Origin: Conexivisphaerales archaeon
GTDB taxonomy: Archaea > Thermoproteota > Nitrososphaeria > Conexivisphaerales > UBA164
Length of the DNA: 64,000 nt
Assembly (NCBI GenBank): GCA_030756715.1
Contig: JAVBJD010000001.1
Coordinates: forward strand, 5,578 to 69,577
Reading direction: 5' to 3'
Each line of letters starts with the position of its first letter. Positions within the stretch are counted from its first letter, which is position 1. Under the pieces are notes generated by a model. That model was not told the DNA's origin. It searched no databases and worked only from the letters and a program-made list of their open reading frames with translations. Positions 17,803 to 63,610 of the stretch are shown here, one piece after another. A program made the translations under genes and the position numbers.

Positions 17803-18505
17803 ATGGTATCGCCACGCTTTCGAATTCTCCTCCTAGCGGGTTGCTTATCAGCGTTTCTCCAGTAAGAGGATTCCTGAGAACTGATATAACTCCTATGTTT
17901 GAGAGGTAAGCTATGTAAAATGCTACTTTTAATTTTTCGTTAAACTTCTCTATGAATTCTTTATAGGGCACTGTCTTGAGTTTTTCAAGTTCCTGCTTTA
18001 AGCTTTTTTCGTAAAATTCCATAGCTTCTTCTTCAAACTTTTTGTCAAAAACTATGCTCTGTGTGTATTCGCTTTCGTGCCTGGAAACGCTTCCCAAGCT
18101 CGGTTTTCTGCCCCACGGCTCTATCAACCCCAAGTATTCAACTGCCATCTTTATCCTTTCACGGCTTATTCTTTTTATCCCAAGGGCTGGAGTAGTGTGC
18201 TTTGCAAGTATAAGACCTAAGTCTTTAAATGGCATTTGCTTTACTTTTTCTTTTATGAGCTGTGGGTCTATTTTAAGGCCCTTTAACGCATCCAGTACCC
18301 ATTCTTCTTGTTTTTCAATAACTATAGATACAGAATTTAGAGCCTGCGATTCGTATTTTAAAGAAATAACCCTGTCTTTAAGCTTATTTTCATTTATCTT
18401 TTTTAAAAGTTCTTCAACGTTGATGGCGAACGGGTCTCCACCTACTTTTTTTAAAACTTCTGGCAGCTCTATTATTTTCTTTAATTCTTCTTCTTTGCCG
18501 TTCAC
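17795..18505 (-). CDS. Kleisin (ScpA)-like protein
   Basis: 236 aa with a helical N-terminus (DPFAINVEELLKKINE). The C-terminus VAFYIAYLSNIGVISVLRNPLTGETLIS resembles the ScpA C-terminal winged helix. 4 nt overlap with the SMC-like gene. Confidence 0.45.
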   Translation of the reverse strand: MNGKEEELKKIIELPEVLKKVGGDPFAINVEELLKKINENKLKDRVISLKYESQALNSVSIVIEKQEEWVLDALKGLKIDPQLIKEKVKQMPFKDLGLILAKHTTPALGIKRISRERIKMAVEYLGLIEPWGRKPSLGSVSRHESEYTQSIVFDKKFEEEAMEFYEKSLKQELEKLKTVPYKEFIEKFNEKLKVAFYIAYLSNIGVISVLRNPLTGETLISNPLGGEFESVAIPFG

Positions 18506-21108: not shown

Positions 21109-21602
21109 TTTGTTTAATTATAAAAGCTTATTAGACGTCTTCATGTAAATTATTAGAGCGTTGATAAAAGTTGGAGAATATGAAATACGCGAAGCAAATG
21201 AAGACAATATATGGGAAGCAGTTAAAATAAACGAAAAGACGCTGCCAGAACACTACACTTTTGAGTTTTACCTAGAAGTTTATAGAAATTTTCCAGAAGG
21301 CTTCCTTATAGCTTGGCTTGACGGGAATGCAGTAGGATACATAATGAATAGGATAGAAAGGGGGCTTTCGCATTTTGGCTTTTCAATAGTAAAGCAAGGA
21401 CACGTGGTCTCAATAGCTGTTTTGCCTGAACACAGGAGAAAAGGTCTAGGGACGGCTTTGCTCCAAACTGCTATCGAAAGGATGAAGAACAGAGGGTGTC
21501 AAGAAGTCTACCTTGAAGTTAGAGTTACAAACGAAGAAGCTATACGAGTATATGAAAAGCTTAACTTTGTAAAGGTAAGAACTATTGAATATTACTATAG
21601 TG

Positions 21603-22195
<593 letters not shown>

Positions 22196-31975: not shown

Positions 31976-31980
31976 TGCAT

Positions 31981-33030
31981 CTACACCGGATGTATAGCAG
32001 GAACATCAAGGCTGAGCTTTTCGTCAAAGCCAAGCATCAAGTTCATCGACTGAACGGCGCTGCCAGCTGCGCCTTTTATCAAGTTATCAATAGCCCCAAG
32101 AGCAACTATTCTGCCTGAATGAGAATCAAAATCGAAACCAACGTCCGCAAAGTTTGAACCGACCACTACTTTTGGATCAGGATACTTATAAATTCCTGTT
32201 TTATCCATCATGAACCTTACAAACGGCTCGTTTTTATAAAATTCCCTGTAAGCTCTCCATAGTTCTGGGACGGTTATTTGTTGATCAGTAATGATGTGTG
32301 ATGTGGTTAATATTCCTCTGACTATGTTTACCGCATGCGCGCTCATCCCTACTTTTACTTTTTTACCGGCTAACCTTCCTATTTCTTGTTCTATTTCAGC
32401 AGCATGTCTGTGACCAGCTGGTTTATAAGGTCTTATGACCCCGTACCTTTCTGAGTAGTGAGTTGACAATGAGGGTTTGCCGCCTGCTCCCGATGAGCCT
32501 ATCTTTGCGTCAACTATTAAAGGGATATCTGATACGTATCTGTAAAGAGGCGCGAGGCTTATTATGGATGAAGTAGCCATACAGCCCGGTGCTGACACAT
32601 AATTAGTATTTTTTAGCTCGTCTCTGTGAAGCTCAGGAAGGCCATATACGAATTTTTTTAACAAATCCGGATAAGGATGTTCGTAACTGTACCAAATCTT
32701 GTACTGTTCAGGATCTTTCAGCCTGAAGTCAGCGCTCATGTCGACTATTTTTACGCCTGATTTCATTATTTCAGGAACAACCTTTACGGAAGCTTTATGG
32801 GGCAATGCCAGGAAAACTAGGTCGGCTTTTGTCGCGGCCGTAACTGGATCCTCTCCAGTGAACCTTATGTTCAGTATTCCCTTTAGGTTTGGATGGACTT
32901 TGTGCACATACTCTCCTGCATACTGTCTTGAAGTTAACGAAGTGAGTTCTACATTTGGGTGCCTTACGAGAATTCTTACAAGTTCCCCGCCAACATACCC
33001 TGATGCTCCAACTATTGAAACCTTAACCAT
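31981..33030 (-). CDS. lysY: N-acyl-gamma-phosphate reductase (LysY/ArgC)
   Basis: VSIVGASGYVGGEL and the catalytic context SAPGCMATS. Confidence 0.9.
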   Translation of the reverse strand: MVKVSIVGASGYVGGELVRILVRHPNVELTSLTSRQYAGEYVHKVHPNLKGILNIRFTGEDPVTAATKADLVFLALPHKASVKVVPEIMKSGVKIVDMSADFRLKDPEQYKIWYSYEHPYPDLLKKFVYGLPELHRDELKNTNYVSAPGCMATSSIISLAPLYRYVSDIPLIVDAKIGSSGAGGKPSLSTHYSERYGVIRPYKPAGHRHAAEIEQEIGRLAGKKVKVGMSAHAVNIVRGILTTSHIITDQQITVPELWRAYREFYKNEPFVRFMMDKTGIYKYPDPKVVVGSNFADVGFDFDSHSGRIVALGAIDNLIKGAAGSAVQSMNLMLGFDEKLSLDVPAIHPV

Positions 33031-39885: not shown

Positions 39886-40886
39886 CTTAGTGCGGCTTCA
39901 GCCAGCTTTACCCCTTTTATCATGTTTTTTAATTTAGCAAAAGCTATTTCCCTTTTTCTTGTCCTCAGACCGCAATCAGGATTGACGTAAACCTTTGACG
40001 GGTCGCCCAGTATCTTAACAGCGTAGAGAATTCTATCCCTTATAAGCTCAGGAGGTTCTATAAAGTCTGAGTGAACATCAAGAACTCCGAGCCCTATCTC
40101 TCTGTCGCTAGCATATTCTTTAAAAGCCTTGAGGGCTCTGTAACCAGGCCTAGAAACATCGTCAACCCCAATATTGTTTAAATCCCTGTTTGCAAACTCA
40201 AGCGCAAAATGTTTTGCCTTCAGATCAGGAATGATGGGCATAAGGCTTGCGTATTCATCACCGCTATAACATATATGAGTGTTGATCTTAGCGTTTATCC
40301 CTTTAACCTGTTCATTAAATACTTCAGCAAACATGTTCATCTCTGATGGGTGCGTAGTAGCAGCAGGTTCATCTATCTGCACTACCTGCATGCCAACGCC
40401 TTCTAGCTCTTTTAGTATTCTATTGATTATGTTTTTCGCTAGATCCAGTGCTAGCTCTTCCCTCGAGTCGTAATATTCGTTATAAGACCAGTCCATGAGC
40501 GTATATGCGCCCGTAACGGGTATCTTGGGCGTCTTTGAAGCGTGTTCTTTTACAAAAATGAACTCTTCAAGGTGATAGTTTTTTACGAAAGAGACTTCAT
40601 CAATGACCCTGGCTTTTTTGTAGTATTTGTTGTCCCACGACCTAACTCTTCCTACAAATTCAAAACCGTGTATAAACTTTGCAGGAAGCTCGTACATTTC
40701 AACTCTTCTAGCTTCGCCATCATAAACAAAGTCCAGCCCTATATGTTCAAGCATCTTTAAATTTACAAATGAAGCATCGTCAAGTGCTGCCTTTTTTTCT
40801 TCTTCTGAGGCGCTAGATCTTAAAAATTCTAAAAGCCAGCTCGGCTTTTTTAGGCTACCTATTTCCTGTGTTTTAAAAACGCTCAT
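39882..40886 (-). CDS. Cobalamin-independent methionine synthase, catalytic (MetE C-terminal-like) subunit
   Basis: Zn-ligand contexts THICYSG and NPDCGLRTR. Confidence 0.8.
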   Translation of the reverse strand: MSVFKTQEIGSLKKPSWLLEFLRSSASEEEKKAALDDASFVNLKMLEHIGLDFVYDGEARRVEMYELPAKFIHGFEFVGRVRSWDNKYYKKARVIDEVSFVKNYHLEEFIFVKEHASKTPKIPVTGAYTLMDWSYNEYYDSREELALDLAKNIINRILKELEGVGMQVVQIDEPAATTHPSEMNMFAEVFNEQVKGINAKINTHICYSGDEYASLMPIIPDLKAKHFALEFANRDLNNIGVDDVSRPGYRALKAFKEYASDREIGLGVLDVHSDFIEPPELIRDRILYAVKILGDPSKVYVNPDCGLRTRKREIAFAKLKNMIKGVKLAEAALR

Positions 40887-53584: not shown

Positions 53585-53966
53585 TTTTTCTCACCGACGT
53601 CAAATGCTGCTGGTACTCAGACATTACCCATCTTTCTAATTTTGTACATGTTCTGGGGGAAACCTCGCCTTCGTCATAACATTTTGAAAATAAGGGACAT
53701 GTAATACACGGAGCATCTGCTATGCTTTCAACGCTCAAAGGTATAAGAAGCGGTTTAATCCTGTAAGTCCACCTGCCATCTTCCAAAACTTTCTCTCTTC
53801 TGATTAACTTTCTCTTTTCTAATCTTGTGGCTATCCTTGATCCGTCCCTGCTGGTCAGGTTAAGTTTTTTCCATAGTTCGCTCTGCAATATTCCCTTGTC
53901 ACCGCTCTCGATAACTATCTTGTAAACAAGGCTTATAAGATCGTCTTCCTTGCTCTCTCTAGGCAT
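53574..53966 (-). CDS. Winged-helix protein with a C-terminal Cys cluster (TFE-beta / RPC34-like)
   Basis: The wH segment is GILQSELWKKLNLTSRDGSRIATRLEKRKLIRREKV. It is followed by CITCPLFSKC...C (C-x2-C-x5-C-x13-C). Confidence 0.45.
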   Translation of the reverse strand: MPRESKEDDLISLVYKIVIESGDKGILQSELWKKLNLTSRDGSRIATRLEKRKLIRREKVLEDGRWTYRIKPLLIPLSVESIADAPCITCPLFSKCYDEGEVSPRTCTKLERWVMSEYQQHLTSVRKNET

Positions 53967-58422: not shown

Positions 58423-58686
58423 TTATTCGCTAATTATGCTTAGATCGTTTGAAGCAACAATATAATCGATGACTTCTTTAACCCACACCCCCGTTTCAGG
58501 CCTTTTTCTTACTTCTTTCAAATATTCATTAAAGGAAATGTTGAAAGCTTCTTTCCAGTATTTATAACCTTCAGTTAGGCTCTTTGCCGCGGTCCTGTGT
58601 TTAAAACACAGTAAACCTTCTTCTGAATAAGACCCGCAAACTACGCACTTTTTATTTTGCTGCTTGGGCACTCCGGGTTCGGACAA
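58423..58686 (-). CDS. Small Cys/His-motif protein overlapping the topoisomerase 3' end (uncertain)
   Basis: CVVCGSYSEEGLLCFKH followed by a helical tail. Candidate starts are TTG 58686 or GTG 71; the track's ATG 58791 would give a 151 nt overlap with the topoisomerase gene. Confidence 0.35.
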   Translation of the reverse strand: MSEPGVPKQQNKKCVVCGSYSEEGLLCFKHRTAAKSLTEGYKYWKEAFNISFNEYLKEVRKRPETGVWVKEVIDYIVASNDLSIISE

Positions 58687-60599
58687 AACACCCAACCACC
58701 TCTCTTTATCATAGGCCACCCGCAATAACTGCAATTTTTCTTTGCGGGAACTAGCTTGCCTTTTCTTGGAAGCGGCGCTGATGCTCCACAAACGTTACAT
58801 TTTAAATACCTTTTTCCGGCCTGAGATATGTGCAGTATAAGCTCGCCTTTTCCGCAAACCGGACATTTTCCAAACGATTCACCGGTTCCAGCGGCGAGGT
58901 ATTTTCTTGTAAGTTCAACCATCTCTTCCGAATGTTTCACGTTTTTCAGTTCTTCGATAAGGAATCTAGCGCTTTCACCTAAGACGTAACTTGGATGAGC
59001 TTTACCGAATTCAATATTCTCTAGAGAATTCTCTAGCTTTCTTGTCATTTCAAGCGTTATTATCTGGGAAAAACTGAAATACCTAGCAACGCTGAAGCCC
59101 AGTTCTGTTATTTCTATCCTGTTGCCCTTTATGTACCCCCTTTTGTAAAGCGTTTTTATGATATCGGCTCTTGTAGCCTTTGTGCCTATTTCATTAGATT
59201 CCATCCACTCTAAAAGGCTTGAAGGAGTATACCTTGAAGGGGGTTTCGTATAAGTAAGCTCCACCTTTACATCTTTAATGAGCACTTTGTCACCTACAGA
59301 AGCATCTGGAATGCTCTTTTCTCTTATTTCTTTAAAAGGATAGACTTCAAGCCACCCCCTGTCTACAAGTGCTGCTCCATCGGCTTCAAGGTCAAATACA
59401 TCTGCCCTCACTTTTATATATTTTTTAGCTACCTTTGCGTTTCTGTAAAAAGTACCTATGAACCTCCTCGCAACAAGGTCATAAAGTTTGAACTCGGTAC
59501 CGCTTAAGGGTTGCAGTTCACCGGTTGGGTAGATTGCCGGATGAGCCGGATCGTCCATTGGCCCTTCAACCGGGTAAGACCTTGATATGTTTGCCGTTTC
59601 TTTGTATCTCTGACCCAGCTTTGTAAGAATCGATTTATAATTGATTGCTGGAGGAAGTTTTTGTGAACTAGTTCGAGGATAAGATATAAGCGCCCTCAAA
59701 TACAGCTTTTCAAGAATAGCCAAAGATTCCCATGGCTGAATGCCAAAAAGCCTGTAGACTTCTTTTTGTAGATCCGATAAGTTAAACGGATATGGCGGTT
59801 TTATTTCTTCCATGCTCTTATCAAAAAACGTTACTTTACCTATCTTTCCCTTTAGCTCCTTTGCCCTTTGCACTTCTTCTAAACTTCTTAAATTTGGACC
59901 AGAAAGTTCAAGTTCTTCACCTTTTATTTCGCCTATAACTTTAAACTTCCAGTATGGTTTTGGCACATATGAGTTTATTTCTGATTCCCTGTTATATATC
60001 TCAATCAAAGTAGGCCCCTGTACCCTTCCTATGCTCAGGCTCAACCTTTTGCCTGTACCGCGCCTTACTTCTTCCATCAGCAGACGCGACAGGCTTATCC
60101 CCCACATAAAGTCAATGTAGTGCCTAGTCCTTCCAGCATCGGCCATAAGCCATTTATCCCTTGTTAAGAGGCTGTTGAAGCTGTGCTTTAATTCTTCTAC
60201 AGTTAGAGTTGAAAACTTTGCTCTTTTAACTACCTTTTCAAAACCTCCATTGTACTTTACAATGTTAAAACCTATCGTTTCACCTTCTATGTCATAATCG
60301 CACGCTATTACAACCTGTTCACTTTCTCTGAGCAGCTTTTTCATAACTTCTAAAAGCTTTATGACGTATCTATCATCTTCTAAAGGAACCCACTCAACAT
60401 CTAACACAGGAAAAAGGCTCAGATCTCCGACGTCTGTTTTCAATGTGTAAAGATGTCCTCTAGCAGGTATTACGTAAAACTTTGTAGAGTTCCATGAACC
60501 GACATAAACCGGGACTCCTTCTAAGGCAAGCTTTTTATAAGAACGATCAAGAGCAAAAGCGATTCTCTTAGCAGCATCGTTTTTTTCTGCTATGATTAA
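58641..60599 (-). CDS. Type IA DNA topoisomerase (Topo III/TopA-like) with C-terminal zinc ribbons
   Basis: TOPRIM LIIAEKNDAAKRIA, YPRTSS active-site Tyr context, and C-terminal CPVCG..CNVCG and CSYCG..CPNPEC. The 5' end abuts tRNA-Val, and no ATG/GTG/TTG exists between the tRNA and the TOPRIM motif. Confidence 0.85.
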   Translation of the reverse strand, partial: LIIAEKNDAAKRIAFALDRSYKKLALEGVPVYVGSWNSTKFYVIPARGHLYTLKTDVGDLSLFPVLDVEWVPLEDDRYVIKLLEVMKKLLRESEQVVIACDYDIEGETIGFNIVKYNGGFEKVVKRAKFSTLTVEELKHSFNSLLTRDKWLMADAGRTRHYIDFMWGISLSRLLMEEVRRGTGKRLSLSIGRVQGPTLIEIYNRESEINSYVPKPYWKFKVIGEIKGEELELSGPNLRSLEEVQRAKELKGKIGKVTFFDKSMEEIKPPYPFNLSDLQKEVYRLFGIQPWESLAILEKLYLRALISYPRTSSQKLPPAINYKSILTKLGQRYKETANISRSYPVEGPMDDPAHPAIYPTGELQPLSGTEFKLYDLVARRFIGTFYRNAKVAKKYIKVRADVFDLEADGAALVDRGWLEVYPFKEIREKSIPDASVGDKVLIKDVKVELTYTKPPSRYTPSSLLEWMESNEIGTKATRADIIKTLYKRGYIKGNRIEITELGFSVARYFSFSQIITLEMTRKLENSLENIEFGKAHPSYVLGESARFLIEELKNVKHSEEMVELTRKYLAAGTGESFGKCPVCGKGELILHISQAGKRYLKCNVCGASAPLPRKGKLVPAKKNCSYCGWPMIKRGGWVFCPNPECPSSKIKSA

Positions 60600-60601
60600 A
60601 G

Positions 60602-60676
60602 TGGGCCGGGCCGGATTCGAACCGGCGACCTCCGCCGCGTCAAGGCGGTGTGCTGACCAAGCTACACCACCGGCCC
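60602..60676 (-). tRNA. tRNA-Val (GAC)
   Basis: GGGCCGG-UG-GUGU-AGCUUGGUCA-GCAC-A-CCGCC-UUGACGC-GGCGG-AGGUC-GCCGG-UUCGAAU-CCGGC-CCGGCCC-A. Confidence 0.9.
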
Positions 60677-60684
60677 GTGACACT

Positions 60685-60852
60685 TTACTTCTTAGCTCCT
60701 AACTCTCTGTTTTGAAGCCTAAGGGACTTACTACCGCACTTTCTGCATCTAACAGCAGAAATCGGGTTTTTAGCACCACATTTCATGCATATCTTATGCA
60801 TTAGTTTCCTCTGAACAGCTATCTGTCTTTTAACAGGATCAGCTATGGGCAT
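60685..60852 (-). CDS. rpl40e: Ribosomal protein L40e
   Basis: Not in the ORF track (55 aa). Own translation: MPIADPVKRQIAVQRKLMHKICMKCGAKNPISAVRCRKCGSKSLRLQNRELGAKK, matching the archaeal L40e pattern. An upstream in-frame ATG at 60864 is also possible. Confidence 0.85.
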   Translation of the reverse strand: MPIADPVKRQIAVQRKLMHKICMKCGAKNPISAVRCRKCGSKSLRLQNRELGAKK

Positions 60853-61001
60853 AATAACGCTCATACGGTTGTCGTTTATAAACTTTTTAGAAAATTCGAA
60901 GCTATAAAATTCTTGGCTTCCCTTACTTTTAAAATGGCATATAGATAAATGATTTTGAAAAAACGCTACATTAATATGTTAAACATTGTTAAACTAATTC
61001 C

Positions 61002-61925
61002 ATGCAAGGTGAACCCGTTAAAGATATAGTTCTAGAAAAAAACGATGCGCCATTTAGCCTGTTAAAAAAAATGGCTAAAGCCGGCGGATTCTCTGGCAGG
61101 GAAATGGGAGAAGCTCTGGATTATTTGAAAGAGCTTTTTTCTGGAGATTATGGGAGGATTTTGACGTTTCCTGCAGATATAATAGCTACAGGATTAAGGG
61201 GGGTAATAACGCAACTAATAAAGCTAAAGATGTTCGATCTTGTCATAACAACTTGCGGAGCCCTTGACCATGACATAGCGAGAAGCTTCTCTAACTATTA
61301 CGAAGGTTCGTACTTTGAAGACGATGTAAAGCTTAGAGAAAAAGGCATACATAGACTTGGAAATGTTTTCATACCTTTGGAAAATTATGGTCCTCTTATA
61401 GAAAAAAAGATGCAGGAACTGTTGACTTCTGAATACGCTAAAAAAACAAAAACGCCAACTTATACGCTTGCTTGGGATATAGGAAAGATGATAAATAATG
61501 AGTCTTCTTTCCTTTACTGGGCGTATAAAAACCAGATACCTGTCGTTGTTCCGGGTATCACCGATGGTGCTGTTGGATATCAGCTCTGGCTTTTTAAGCA
61601 ATCTCACAGAGATTTTACAGTAGATGCTCTCGAAGATGAGCAGCTTGTATCTGATTTTGTTTACTCCCATAAAAAGCTGGGCGCGCTTATAATTGGCGGG
61701 GGCATCTCAAAACACCACGCGATATGGTGGTCGCAATTTAGGGATGGTCTAGAAATAGCAGTTTACGTAACAACGGCTTATGAATATGATGGAAGCCTTA
61801 GCGGTGCTCTTACGAGAGAGGCAATATCATGGGGAAAAATAAAGCCGCGTGGCAAACACGTTACAGTGCACGGAGATGCAACCATAGTGTTACCGTTTTT
61901 GATACATGGTGTACTCTATGGTTAA
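61002..61925 (+). CDS. dys: Deoxyhypusine synthase
   Basis: IIGGGISKHH and the catalytic-lysine context EAISWGKI. Confidence 0.85.
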   Translation: MQGEPVKDIVLEKNDAPFSLLKKMAKAGGFSGREMGEALDYLKELFSGDYGRILTFPADIIATGLRGVITQLIKLKMFDLVITTCGALDHDIARSFSNYYEGSYFEDDVKLREKGIHRLGNVFIPLENYGPLIEKKMQELLTSEYAKKTKTPTYTLAWDIGKMINNESSFLYWAYKNQIPVVVPGITDGAVGYQLWLFKQSHRDFTVDALEDEQLVSDFVYSHKKLGALIIGGGISKHHAIWWSQFRDGLEIAVYVTTAYEYDGSLSGALTREAISWGKIKPRGKHVTVHGDATIVLPFLIHGVLYG

Positions 61926-62980
61926 GGTATAACTTCTGTTGAATCCTGAGTTGGATCGTATTTTAATTGATCCTTGGAGATAATACCCTCATTTATATAG
62001 TGGTCCAGATATTTAGTTAAAGAAATGACCTCTTCGATTGTTCTTTTTGTAATTTCATCAAGGTCTTCATAAAATGACCCCCAAAGATTTTTACCCTCCA
62101 TTAGTGAATAAAGGCATCTGCCTCCGCAGTATCTAAAGTATTCGCATGATTTGCACTTTTCTGGAATTTCTAATCCTTTAAATTTGAACCCTTTATCAAC
62201 ATCTCCAAGTACGGCCCATCTTTCAAAAACAGCTATAGGGCACGCAAGGATCCTTCCATCAGTGCTTACGGAAATGGACCTGTAACCGGCTCCGCACGGA
62301 GGACCATTGTACCCATCAAAGTAATGCGCAGAAAGTATTCCTAAAAAAGGTATTATGCCCAGAACATTTCCCTGAGAAGCTTCTTCTAAAAATTTTTCCC
62401 CGAGCTTTCTTATGCCTGGTATGTAAGAGCTGTAAGCCCAGCTTTTTATGTTCCATTTTTTACTCCATACGGCGTTTAGCTGCCAATGAACATTTTTAAA
62501 GCCTATTGAAAAAAGGTGCATTACATCTTCATATATGTCAGTGTACTGAGTTACTGTCATTCTTGCTATGATCTTGCTTATTCCTATTGAATTCAGTTTT
62601 ATCAAACTTTTTAAAACAGAATCATAAGTCCCTTTTCCTCTGAATCTGTCCGTTAACTGTTTCCTGCCATCTATAGACAGCAAAACTACATCCATCTTTT
62701 TCCAATATTTTTCAGGAAGAAGGTCGATCTTTGTCCCGTTAGTCTGGATGCCGAACCTTCTGGCCTGAATTTCGTCCATTATATCTTCAATGAACTCGGG
62801 GTTTAGCAATGGTTCGCCGCCATAAAATATTATTACGGCTTCTGAATCTGCCTCTATCATTTCTTTTAGTACGTTCAGATCGTACTTAACTTTCCATGGC
62901 ACAATATTAGGACTAAACGACCCACCACAATAAGAGCACTTAAGGTTACATTCTCCTGTTGTGTAAATTAACCATAGCAT
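61922..62980 (-). CDS. Radical SAM enzyme with a SPASM-type C-terminal Cys cluster
   Basis: CNLKCSYCGG (CxxxCxxC), then CGAGYRSISVSTDGRILACP and CKSCEYFRYCGGRC. Confidence 0.8.
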   Translation of the reverse strand: MLWLIYTTGECNLKCSYCGGSFSPNIVPWKVKYDLNVLKEMIEADSEAVIIFYGGEPLLNPEFIEDIMDEIQARRFGIQTNGTKIDLLPEKYWKKMDVVLLSIDGRKQLTDRFRGKGTYDSVLKSLIKLNSIGISKIIARMTVTQYTDIYEDVMHLFSIGFKNVHWQLNAVWSKKWNIKSWAYSSYIPGIRKLGEKFLEEASQGNVLGIIPFLGILSAHYFDGYNGPPCGAGYRSISVSTDGRILACPIAVFERWAVLGDVDKGFKFKGLEIPEKCKSCEYFRYCGGRCLYSLMEGKNLWGSFYEDLDEITKRTIEEVISLTKYLDHYINEGIISKDQLKYDPTQDSTEVIP

Positions 62981-63022
62981 TTTTAATTGATAAAAAATAA
63001 AAAACGATGCTTAAAAATTAAC

Positions 63023-63610
63023 TTAAAGTTTTCCTATGTCGTCCGGCACTCTGATCTTTATTACTGGCATTCCTTCTTCCCAGTTGGCTGGGATTATGTC
63101 GAACTCTTCTGGCTTTGCTGGGTGCTCATATATGTACTTTAGCCCTTTCAAAGCGTTCAGAACGTGCTTTACGTCCTTGCCAAGTCTATCGTTAAACACT
63201 GATATATACTGGACTACTCCATCAGGGTCTATTATCACGGTGCCTCTTTTTGTCATTCCAGTGTCAGTGTTCAGGAAGCCATAAACGGTAGCTATGTCTT
63301 TCCTTATGTCCTCGACAAGAGGGTATGTAACCTTTTTTACCCTTGGGCTTGTCTCCCACCATACTTTGTGAGAATATATAGAATCCTCGCTTATTGCAAG
63401 GATTTCGGCGTTAAGAGCCTTGAATTTGTCGTAATACGCTTGAAAGGCTTCAAGGTCTGTAGCACATACAAATGTAAAGTCTCCTGGATGAAATGTCAGC
63501 ACTACCCATTTCCCCTTATAATCGCTAAGTTTTAGCTGCTTTATTTTTTTCTCGTTTGGAAAGAATGCCTTTGCAGTAAAATCTGGAGCGGGTTTACCTA
63601 CTTCTATCAT
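63023..63610 (-). CDS. Peroxiredoxin (AhpC/Prx family, probably 1-Cys)
   Basis: PGDFTFVCATD peroxidatic-Cys motif. No second Cys at the usual resolving position (IIPANW). Confidence 0.85.
   Translation of the reverse strand: MIEVGKPAPDFTAKAFFPNEKKIKQLKLSDYKGKWVVLTFHPGDFTFVCATDLEAFQAYYDKFKALNAEILAISEDSIYSHKVWWETSPRVKKVTYPLVEDIRKDIATVYGFLNTDTGMTKRGTVIIDPDGVVQYISVFNDRLGKDVKHVLNALKGLKYIYEHPAKPEEFDIIPANWEEGMPVIKIRVPDDIGKL

Follow-up and report, generated by a model that had tools for sequence, protein, structure and literature searches.

Linkage of tRNA Genes to Protein-Coding Genes

Genes for transfer RNA (tRNA) are linked to protein-coding genes in several known systems. Animal mitochondria have tRNA punctuation and leaderless messenger RNAs (mRNAs), and plant mitochondria have t-elements. 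In mammalian mitochondria, translation starts on AUA or AUU after tRNA punctuation, and these codons are read as starts with a specialised tRNA-Met and specialised factors. In Escherichia coli, the thrU-tyrU-glyT-thrT-tufB transcript is a mixed tRNA-mRNA operon whose parts are separated by RNase P and 3′ processing. Archaea can also cut out structured RNAs and join the flanking ends, examples being bulge-helix-bulge (BHB) introns, including the one in cbf5 mRNA, and ribosomal RNA processing stems. The subject here is a locus of a Conexivisphaerales archaeon, from a group of heat-loving archaea, in which the genes for ribosomal protein L40e (60852-60685), tRNA-Val(GAC) (60676-60602) and a complete type IA DNA topoisomerase (topA) stand head-to-tail on the minus strand of the window, that is, the whole stretch of 64,000 nucleotides (nt) from contig JAVBJD010000001.1 that was analysed. 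As judged by sequence comparison, this intact, selected housekeeping gene, which lacks a start codon of its own and adjoins an apparently functional tRNA, is a real, conserved and unusual arrangement. The evidence suggests that translation of topA begins at a start codon that lies upstream of the tRNA and passes through the tRNA sequence.

The closest described case is that of the tRNA-Sec gene selC, predicted by bioinformatics to be nested in the selB open reading frame (ORF) of Alphaproteobacteria (Mukai 2021, PMC8124441). In both cases an unbroken ORF contains a complete, functional-looking tRNA of the same strand, conserved across taxa, and tRNA processing and full-length protein were proposed to be alternatives in selB/selC as well (PMC8124441). 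In selB, however, the tRNA occurs in a C-terminal extension and its processing trims a tail, whereas the tRNA here follows two codons after the proposed start, and its processing would deprive the enzyme of its start codon. The topA case further differs in being archaeal and in having a ribosomal protein gene with a stop-start junction as its upstream partner. Also, in contrast to SelB and tRNA-Sec, tRNA-Val and the topoisomerase have no functional link. The locus is a new, archaeal, 5′-end form of the rarely described tRNA-nested-in-ORF arrangement. No other proteins with tRNA-Val-derived N-termini were found at E<=0.01 with a doubled 56-residue query.

The topA locus resembles animal mitochondrial tRNA punctuation and plant mitochondrial t-elements in that the coding region abuts the tRNA 3′ end without a spacer or promoter. 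An RNase Z cut would make the mRNA 5′ end, and the first codons include AUA, AUC and AUU. Unlike in mitochondria, the topA codons that follow the tRNA behave as sense codons, and a conserved canonical start exists upstream of the tRNA. A mitochondrial-type AUA/AUU start system is not known in archaea. As in the thrU-tyrU-glyT-thrT-tufB operon, tRNA and protein genes appear to lie on one transcript, but tufB has its own Shine-Dalgarno (SD) sequence and AUG downstream of the tRNAs, whereas nothing intervenes here between the tRNA and the protein core.

A Topoisomerase Gene Without Its Own Start Codon

By domain and family-model criteria, the topA product is a predicted type IA DNA topoisomerase of the archaeal TopA/Topo III type. 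It scores 547 bits with TIGR01057 (topA_arch; cutoff 458), Pfam Toprim (PF01751) aligns from residue 1 of LIIAEK, and PF01131 (Topoisom_bac) matches with E=3e-100. The catalytic residues E5, K6, D101, D103 and E105 (DxDxE) are invariant in the alignment, as is the active-site tyrosine motif I305-S306-Y307-P308-R309-T310-S311-S312-Q313 (SYPRTSSQ). The nearest solved structure is that of Sulfolobus topo III (6k8n), in which about 10 residues precede LIIAEK. What fails here is a matter of gene structure and not of family membership: genes of the topA family usually have their own canonical start a few residues before strand beta1, and this one does not.

The sequence that directly follows the tRNA is CTTTAATCATAGCAGAAAAA, and the topA frame runs out of the tRNA as T-L-I-I-A-E-K (ACU UUA AUC AUA GCA GAA AAA in the RNA; ACT TTA ATC ATA GCA GAA AAA in the DNA). 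The interval from the tRNA 3′ end to the GCA of AEK is free of ATG, GTG and TTG. These facts had been put forward in the original prediction, a reading of the letters made by a model, and its placements of the L40e stop (60685-60687), tRNA-Val (60676-60602), the topA frame and the start-free interval all hold on the sequence and on Rfam. It had also placed the beginning of the protein within about three codons of the tRNA. This is correct for the conserved core, which begins within a codon or two, while a translation start at that point is less supported. Going upstream as far as the first in-frame stop (TAG at -24), the frame offers a single canonical start, GTG 60683-60681, which gives MSRAGGVAWSAHRLDAAEVAGSNPARPT....

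DNA was compared for 13 distinct junctions, including that of the window. Seven belong to clade A (the window, to which L182 is identical, L210, L163, L001, L086, L087 and L006, the last being cut off upstream) and six to clade B (L003, L089, L130, L088, L007 and L034). A DNA-pattern scan of metagenomes, whose matches were mostly GC-rich bacterial noise, yielded at least seven relevant loci (L104, L108, L111, L130, L162, L163 and L182). Topoisomerases of clade A are 69-99% identical to the window protein and those of clade B ~52%, and a protein search found the relatives annotated as metagenome-assembled genomes of non-ammonia-oxidising Nitrososphaeria or Conexivisphaerales.

Independent assemblies (ENA, JGI and NCBI) provide at least 12 distinct sequences with the L40e-tRNA-topA arrangement. 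All junctions consist of L40e, an 8-nt spacer, a 75-nt tRNA-Val(GAC) and topA, with the tRNA within a stop-free ORF in 12 relatives. The spacer is constant in length wherever it is present (six sequences of clade A, six of clade B). The trailer before the Ala codon measures 11 nt in clade A versus 17 nt in clade B, a 6-nt difference that preserves the frame. A canonical codon after the tRNA, namely TTG at the Leu position, occurs in four sequences only (L210, P0015, L088 and L034), and nine of the 13 junctions have none. Outside these clades the arrangement was not seen: no tRNA lies within 1.5 kb upstream of topA at 78 loci from other archaea (<=44% identity), and ~98 outgroup homologues with ordinary starts have Met plus 3-34 residues before [A/C]EK.

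A base-call or assembly error that hides an ATG, or decay of topA into a pseudogene lacking its 5′ end, has the missing start codon as its sole support, and its probability is close to nil. The ORF runs unbroken for 652 codons and keeps every catalytic motif, its structure is modelled with confidence by AlphaFold, and at least 12 distinct sequences from independent assemblies carry this junction. Invariance by codon position in clade A topA is 0.60/0.76/0.06, which indicates strong purifying selection. The original prediction had raised the base-call error and had proposed a comparison of orthologous loci for start position and tRNA adjacency. The comparison returned the same junction in at least 12 assemblies of two clades, and the error is thereby effectively refuted.

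One homologue departs from this pattern. P0016 (locus L002; 57% identical), the closest relative that lacks the tRNA, has a TTG start, no adjoining tRNA and other neighbours. A distance tree places it with clade A and leaves clade B outside, so the tRNA-topA fusion is old and was lost once or gained twice. In the P0016 lineage, either topA was relocated or the fusion arose twice. At L002 2960-3010, in an unrelated neighbourhood, the TTG start of topA (MHEGHVLVIAEK) lies ~20 nt downstream of a TTAAATTTT box, and the message is probably leaderless.

The tRNA and Its Transcript

The tRNA-Val scores 66 bits with Rfam RF00005 (gathering threshold 29) over the full model, positions 1-71, and ARAGORN calls it as Val(gac), one base longer. 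It is almost invariant across both clades, with a U27-G43/C27-G43 change in the anticodon stem. Of its three frames, two are closed by stops (TAG at nt 13-15; TGA at nt 32-34), and the remaining, open one is the frame of topA. Since CCA is not encoded, maturation of the tRNA must cut exactly between A60602 and C60601.

Family models for L40e exceed their cutoffs (NCBIfam NF003161, 69.5 bits versus 54; Pfam PF01020, 24.9 versus 23). The start of L40e is ATG 60852 (MPIADP...), which is kept in all relatives. An upstream ATG of the same ORF, at 60864 (MSVIM...), is too near the TATA box, and relatives carry CTGAAC or TTGAAC at this position. The geometry of TATA box and ATG is that of leaderless archaeal mRNA and recurs before other first genes of the window; with the box ending 22 nt before the ATG, the L40e mRNA is most likely leaderless. 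The L40e promoter element AAAGTTTATAAA is invariant in both clades, and no other promoter-like element for the L40e-tRNA-topA unit was found. For example, clade A has no TATA-like box 22-30 nt upstream of the GTG or of the tRNA. Clade B has a conserved AGATTAAAGAA inside L40e that is weakly TATA-like. The 8-nt spacer between L40e and the tRNA, together with the zero gap between the tRNA and topA, leaves no space for another promoter. From this and the promoter geometry, we infer that L40e, the tRNA and topA share one transcript. The polycistronic precursor of the original prediction agrees with the single promoter-like element, whereas the nearly leaderless message that it would derive from tRNA 3′ processing is less supported. 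The features of the locus are given in Table 1.

Table 1. Features of the L40e-tRNA-Val-topA locus, in positions of the window.
Feature	Position	Strand	Remarks
TATA box TTTATAAA of L40e promoter	60875..60882	-	ends 22 nt before conserved ATG 60852
Ribosomal protein L40e, coding sequence	60685..60852	-	55 codons (MPIADP...GAKK) plus stop TAA 60687-60685
Invariant 19-nt junction GGAGCTAAGAAGTAAAGTG	60681..60699	-	last four L40e codons, TAA, one A, GTG
GTG, proposed topA start	60681..60683	-	1 nt after L40e stop, 4 nt before tRNA
Full topA ORF from GTG	60683-58641	-	680 codons; contains whole tRNA 60676-60602 without in-frame stop
tRNA-Val(GAC)	60602..60676	-	75 nt, exactly 25 codons; discriminator A at 60602; CCA not encoded
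Trailer CTTTAATCATA	60591..60601	-	11 nt; with A60602 reads ACT TTA ATC ATA (T L I I), strand beta1 of TOPRIM domain
Conserved topoisomerase IA body	58641..60599	-	652 codons, LIIAEK to stop TAG 58643-58641
GAA, invariant TOPRIM glutamate (E of AEK)	60585..60587	-	E5 and K6 invariant in alignment

The Invariant Stop-Start Junction

The stop codon of L40e and the GTG that follows it belong to a 19-nt block, GGAGCTAAGAAGTAAAGTG, that is identical in all six clade A lineages despite pairwise nucleotide identities of 66-80% (one pair, 93%). In a 2.2-kb clade A alignment, no other invariant run apart from the tRNA is as long, and the next longest measures 8 nt. It spans four synonymous sites and four spacer or non-coding bases, whereas other third positions are invariant at 22% in L40e and 6% in topA. 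The chance of an invariant run of this length is P ~2e-6 at the site and ~0.004 when corrected for all positions. The 4 nt that follow the GTG vary at every position in the six lineages (TCAC/TTAA/CTAA/TTAG/CTAA/TATA). This variable leader contains stop triplets in five of the six lineages, though none of them falls in the GTG frame. On these comparisons, the putative start GTG 60683 is the only feature of clade A for which extra selection can be demonstrated. The original prediction had rightly named it as the only in-frame canonical start, one that leads through the tRNA, but had set it aside; its place in the invariant block speaks for its return.

With one base between stop and start (TAA A GTG) and both genes in the same direction, the junction has the spacing of a termination-reinitiation pair. 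In Haloferax and E. coli, termination-reinitiation works over a narrow range of stop-start distances (PMC6728339, PMC10666635), and its efficiency collapses by ~20 nt (PMC10666635). In pairs of E. coli genes that were tested, the final 15 nt of the upstream gene are enough for coupling, and many pairs need no strong SD sequence (PMC6728339, PMC10666635). The extent of the invariant block matches this 15-nt stretch. L40e and topA thus share with such pairs their common direction, a stop and start a few bases apart and, in clade A, a conserved stretch of ~15 nt at the end of the upstream gene. They differ in that the genes of a typical coupled pair have 1 or 4 nt in common and frequently specify subunits of the same complex, a relation that L40e and a topoisomerase do not have. 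Moreover, a tRNA begins here 4 nt after the start codon, and the junction is absent from the sister clade.

Three further uses of the junction were considered and rejected. A de novo start driven by an SD sequence is one, as internal genes of the window use GGTGA 6-8 nt upstream and GTG 60683 has AGGAG at 13 nt. A second is fusion of L40e to TopA by a +1 frameshift at AAG-UAA; the frames do differ by +1, but no slippery re-pairing is available, and the event was judged unlikely. The third is a leader-trailer helix or BHB around the tRNA, for which folds of 11 sequences gave no conserved pairing and no BHB. In the window, L163 and L001, TAAAGTG could pair with CACTTTA, but this pairing is lost in L086 and L087, where the leader is still invariant; pairing with the trailer therefore does not explain the conservation.

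The conserved GTG block would also fit removal of the tRNA in frame, either by RNase P/RNase Z excision and rejoining of the flanking ends or by a ribosome that bypasses the folded tRNA. Leader (GUGUCAC, 7 nt) and trailer would then be read together as GUG UCA C|CU UUA AUC AUA, and the protein would begin M-S-P-L-I-I-A-E-K. Because the tRNA is exactly 75 nt in all sequences, its precise removal retains the GTG frame. The predicted products (MSPLIIAEK, MLILIIAEK in L210 and L086, MLTLIIAEK, MLVLIIAEK and MYILIIAEK) resemble ordinary N-termini, such as MYTLVVCEK and MKTLLLCEK. Archaeal excision and ligation provide a precedent, and like the cbf5 BHB introns and rRNA processing stems, this is a structured RNA that is removable in principle. 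However, neither a BHB nor conserved pairing of the flanks accompanies it, and the ends that RNase P and RNase Z leave (3′-OH and 5′-phosphate) are not substrates of RtcB, the known ligase. For bypass, no match between take-off and landing codons was found. In addition, no database protein has the joined N-terminus, and clade B has an 8-nt leader without a start. In-frame removal is accordingly regarded as very improbable. If true, it would mean that one transcript gives rise to L40e, tRNA-Val and topoisomerase, and that archaeal mRNA can be spliced, or bypassed, by way of tRNA end-processing enzymes.

Codons Directly after the tRNA

The codons that follow the tRNA also bear on where translation begins. 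The Leu codon is TTA, TTG, TTA, TTA, CTT, CTC or CTT in the seven clade A junctions, and the corresponding Leu/Val codon is CTA, TTA, TTA, TTG, GTA or TTG in the six of clade B. The two codons that precede it in clade B are CCC/CCT/TCT (P/S) and ATT/ATA/GTA/CTA (I/V/L). In the clade B trailer, the seven variable sites of 17 avoid all six second codon positions (p ~0.02). The trailer behaves, by its pattern of substitution, as translated sense codons and not as a 5′ untranslated region or a start codon, so translation would begin at or before the tRNA 3′ end.

One alternative is tRNA punctuation. RNase Z would cut after A60602 to release a 5′-monophosphate topA message that starts CUUUAAUCAUA, with near-cognate initiation at AUC (60596) or AUA (60593) after a leader of 5 or 8 nt, and each transcript would yield both tRNA and mRNA. 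Several observations fit it. The absence of a canonical start after the tRNA from nine of 13 junctions is expected, tRNA processing is obligatory as CCA is not encoded, and a single mechanism would cover both clades. Mitochondria provide a precedent for AUA and AUU, and annotation by PGAP picked such starts (MAEK, MIAEK). Two AUH codons before GCN are kept in every junction, and in clade A the first of them is always 5 nt from the predicted cut, which agrees with the definition of leaderless as a leader of <=5 nt (PMC7531240, where mitochondrial processing is also mentioned).

Against punctuation, the protein needs its Ile-Ile codons in any case, and their presence is thus uninformative. The third position of both Ile codons is A, C or T, never G, though ATG would be neutral or better as a start; with ~5 substitution events, this point is weak. 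The Leu codon, like the I/V/L and P/S codons of clade B, evolves as translated sequence. A start at I30 or I31, giving MIAEK or MAEK, would remove two to three of the five beta1 residues in the AlphaFold model, and in the ~98 homologues whose starts are ordinary, Met and [A/C]EK are always separated by three residues or more. In archaea, leaderless initiation depends on pairing of the initiator tRNA with AUG, GUG or UUG, and leaders without an SD sequence are not translated in Sulfolobus extract (PMC7531240). Finally, punctuation leaves the invariant stop-GTG block unexplained. It is considered unlikely, though it remains the foremost of the alternatives named here, and the near-cognate AUC, AUA or UUA initiation suggested in the original prediction loses ground with it: the Leu codon evolves as sense, and the Ile starts truncate beta1. 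If punctuation were true, archaeal initiation could occur on a processed, 5′-monophosphate, non-AUG message in the manner of mitochondria, which would widen the known rules of archaeal initiation.

Initiation could instead use the junction codon, formed with the discriminator base, on unprocessed or alternatively cut RNA to produce M-LIIAEK. Such a protein would have its full beta1 and an N-terminus like that of ordinary homologues, for instance MLILCEK. The junction codon is a near-cognate ATT, ATA or ATC in five of the seven clade A junctions (counting the truncated L006), and PGAP called the ATT in one genome (P0012/L001). In the window and all six clade B sequences, however, it is ACT, two mismatches from AUG, and a start is not credible there. 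The RNase Z cut that tRNA maturation needs would destroy the codon, its third position is never G, no ribosome-recruiting signal is present, and the folded tRNA adjoins it. Use of the junction codon is therefore improbable.

Proposed Reinitiation and Translation through the tRNA

Reinitiation at the GTG after termination of L40e, followed by translation through the unprocessed tRNA, is the explanation tentatively favoured, at somewhat less than an even chance. A single leaderless transcript would begin at the L40e ATG and cover L40e, the tRNA and topA. A ribosome that ends L40e at UAA (60687-60685) would reinitiate one base on, at GUG 60683. By then this ribosome would have opened the acceptor stem of the tRNA at its first bases, which would leave the start open to the terminating ribosome alone. 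It would then translate the tRNA in its only open frame, yielding a 28-residue disordered tail (M-SRAGGVAWSAHRLDAAEVAGSNPARPT) before LIIAEK, and the product would carry the tRNA-encoded peptides (M)SRAGGVAWSAHR and LDAAEVAGSNPARPTLIIAEK.

Where a copy of the transcript folds and undergoes processing, it would give tRNA-Val and L40e mRNA, with topA severed from its start codon, while a copy held unfolded by ribosomes would give topoisomerase. The tRNA and the enzyme would then be alternative products of one transcript. As the obligatory cut at 60602/60601 separates topA from its start, each copy would end up as tRNA-Val or as topoisomerase mRNA. We infer from sequence that reinitiation takes place, that the tRNA is read through and that the two products exclude each other.

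The tail is unlikely to disturb the enzyme. In an AlphaFold model of the 680-residue form (mean predicted local distance difference test score, pLDDT, 83.9), beta1 consists of T28-L29-I30-I31-A32, and residues 1-23, which the tRNA encodes, have pLDDT <50 and are predicted to be disordered; such a tail would be structurally harmless. N-terminal extensions are tolerated in the topoisomerase family, as in Sulfolobus topo III. Reverse gyrase even bears a whole domain N-terminal to its topoisomerase part. The constant 8-nt spacer in both clades is a thin hint that the frame is kept from upstream.

A number of points weigh against reinitiation and translation through the tRNA. Agreement of the frames alone would arise by chance in ~1/9 of cases and is weak evidence. 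The GC-rich tRNA should be folded and cut fast by RNase P and RNase Z, which would sever the ORF and leave ribosomes on a truncated mRNA. No GGTGA SD sequence precedes GTG 60683, and the only candidate is AGGAG 13 nt upstream. The invariant 19-mer could also have another role, for example at the L40e mRNA 3′ end or as context for RNase P. Further, the stop-GTG junction is present in six of six clade A sequences and absent from six of six in clade B, although both clades have the tRNA-topA fusion. Clade B encodes the same G-A-K-K-stop with varying codons and lacks the GTG. In frame, it has a TTG within L40e, 24 nt before the tRNA, and an ATG formed by nt 37-39 of the tRNA; neither fits short-range reinitiation well, so no one mechanism cleanly covers both clades. 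The probability not given to any of the explanations above is assigned to mechanisms that were not considered.

If reinitiation at the GTG were true, a housekeeping enzyme would be made only from transcript copies that escape tRNA maturation, and ribosomes leaving a ribosomal-protein gene would decide the fate of the RNA, as tRNA or as the 5′ end of an mRNA. No earlier case from archaea would then exist of a coding region with a functional tRNA nested in it, and the locus would provide a natural system in which co-transcriptional translation competes with RNA folding and processing.

Two observations on the tRNA itself may be added. The ATG of clade B results from A37-U38, versus G37-C38 in clade A, and lies in the topA frame within the anticodon loop/stem; each clade thus holds its own in-frame canonical start upstream of topA. 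The motifs GGAGGT and GGTGGTG also occur inside the tRNA, but no in-frame start follows them.

Annotation and Neighbouring Genes

Gene callers assign five different N-termini to topA (proteins P0001-P0022), and its annotation across the clade is therefore unreliable. These are the 680-residue form through the tRNA (Prodigal-type calls), MLIIAEK (from ATT), MIIAEK/MIAEK and MAEK (both non-canonical PGAP starts), and a form without Met (a JGI call). Public calls in relatives include the tRNA-derived N-termini MLRAGGVAWSAHRLDAAEVAGSNPARPTLIIAEK and MAGVAGSNPARPTPILIIAEK.

Gene order around the locus is shared within clade A (60602-63610 of the window; L001, L087 and L210) and comprises genes for a peroxiredoxin, a radical-SAM protein and a divergent deoxyhypusine synthase, followed by L40e, tRNA-Val and topA. 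The upstream flank of clade B retains only the radical-SAM gene with L40e-tRNA-topA, and its outer neighbours differ.

Initiation signals elsewhere in the window are of two kinds. Operon-internal genes have GGTGA or GGTG 6-8 nt upstream (for example, at 53585-53605, 31976-31995, 17803-17820 and 39887-39900), and first genes have TTTATAAA-like boxes ~22-30 nt upstream and no leader. Judged by these signals, the window is a Sulfolobus-like mix of putative SD-led and leaderless initiation in a Nitrososphaeria-related genome.

A second same-strand overlap of an ORF and a tRNA in the window involves tRNA-Arg(CCG) (22121-22195, plus strand), at the 3′ end of the ORF. A 181-codon ORF (21585-22130, plus strand) ends with TAG 10 nt inside this tRNA (...ATAAAG|GGCCCGTAG). 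It was rejected as another case like topA, as the downstream gene has its own TATA box and ATG.

At the other end of topA, a small Cys-rich ORF (58423-58671, minus strand; ...KKCVVCGSYSEEGLLCFKHRTAAKSL...), with GTG 58671 as its candidate start and no Pfam match, overlaps the topA stop (58643-58641) in another frame. An ORF of 76-96 residues overlaps the end of topA likewise in both clades (for instance, L003 4998-5228 and L087 4908-5177), and L006 encodes the same Cys-rich motif. With such an overlap in both clades, topA appears to be coupled to genes on both sides.

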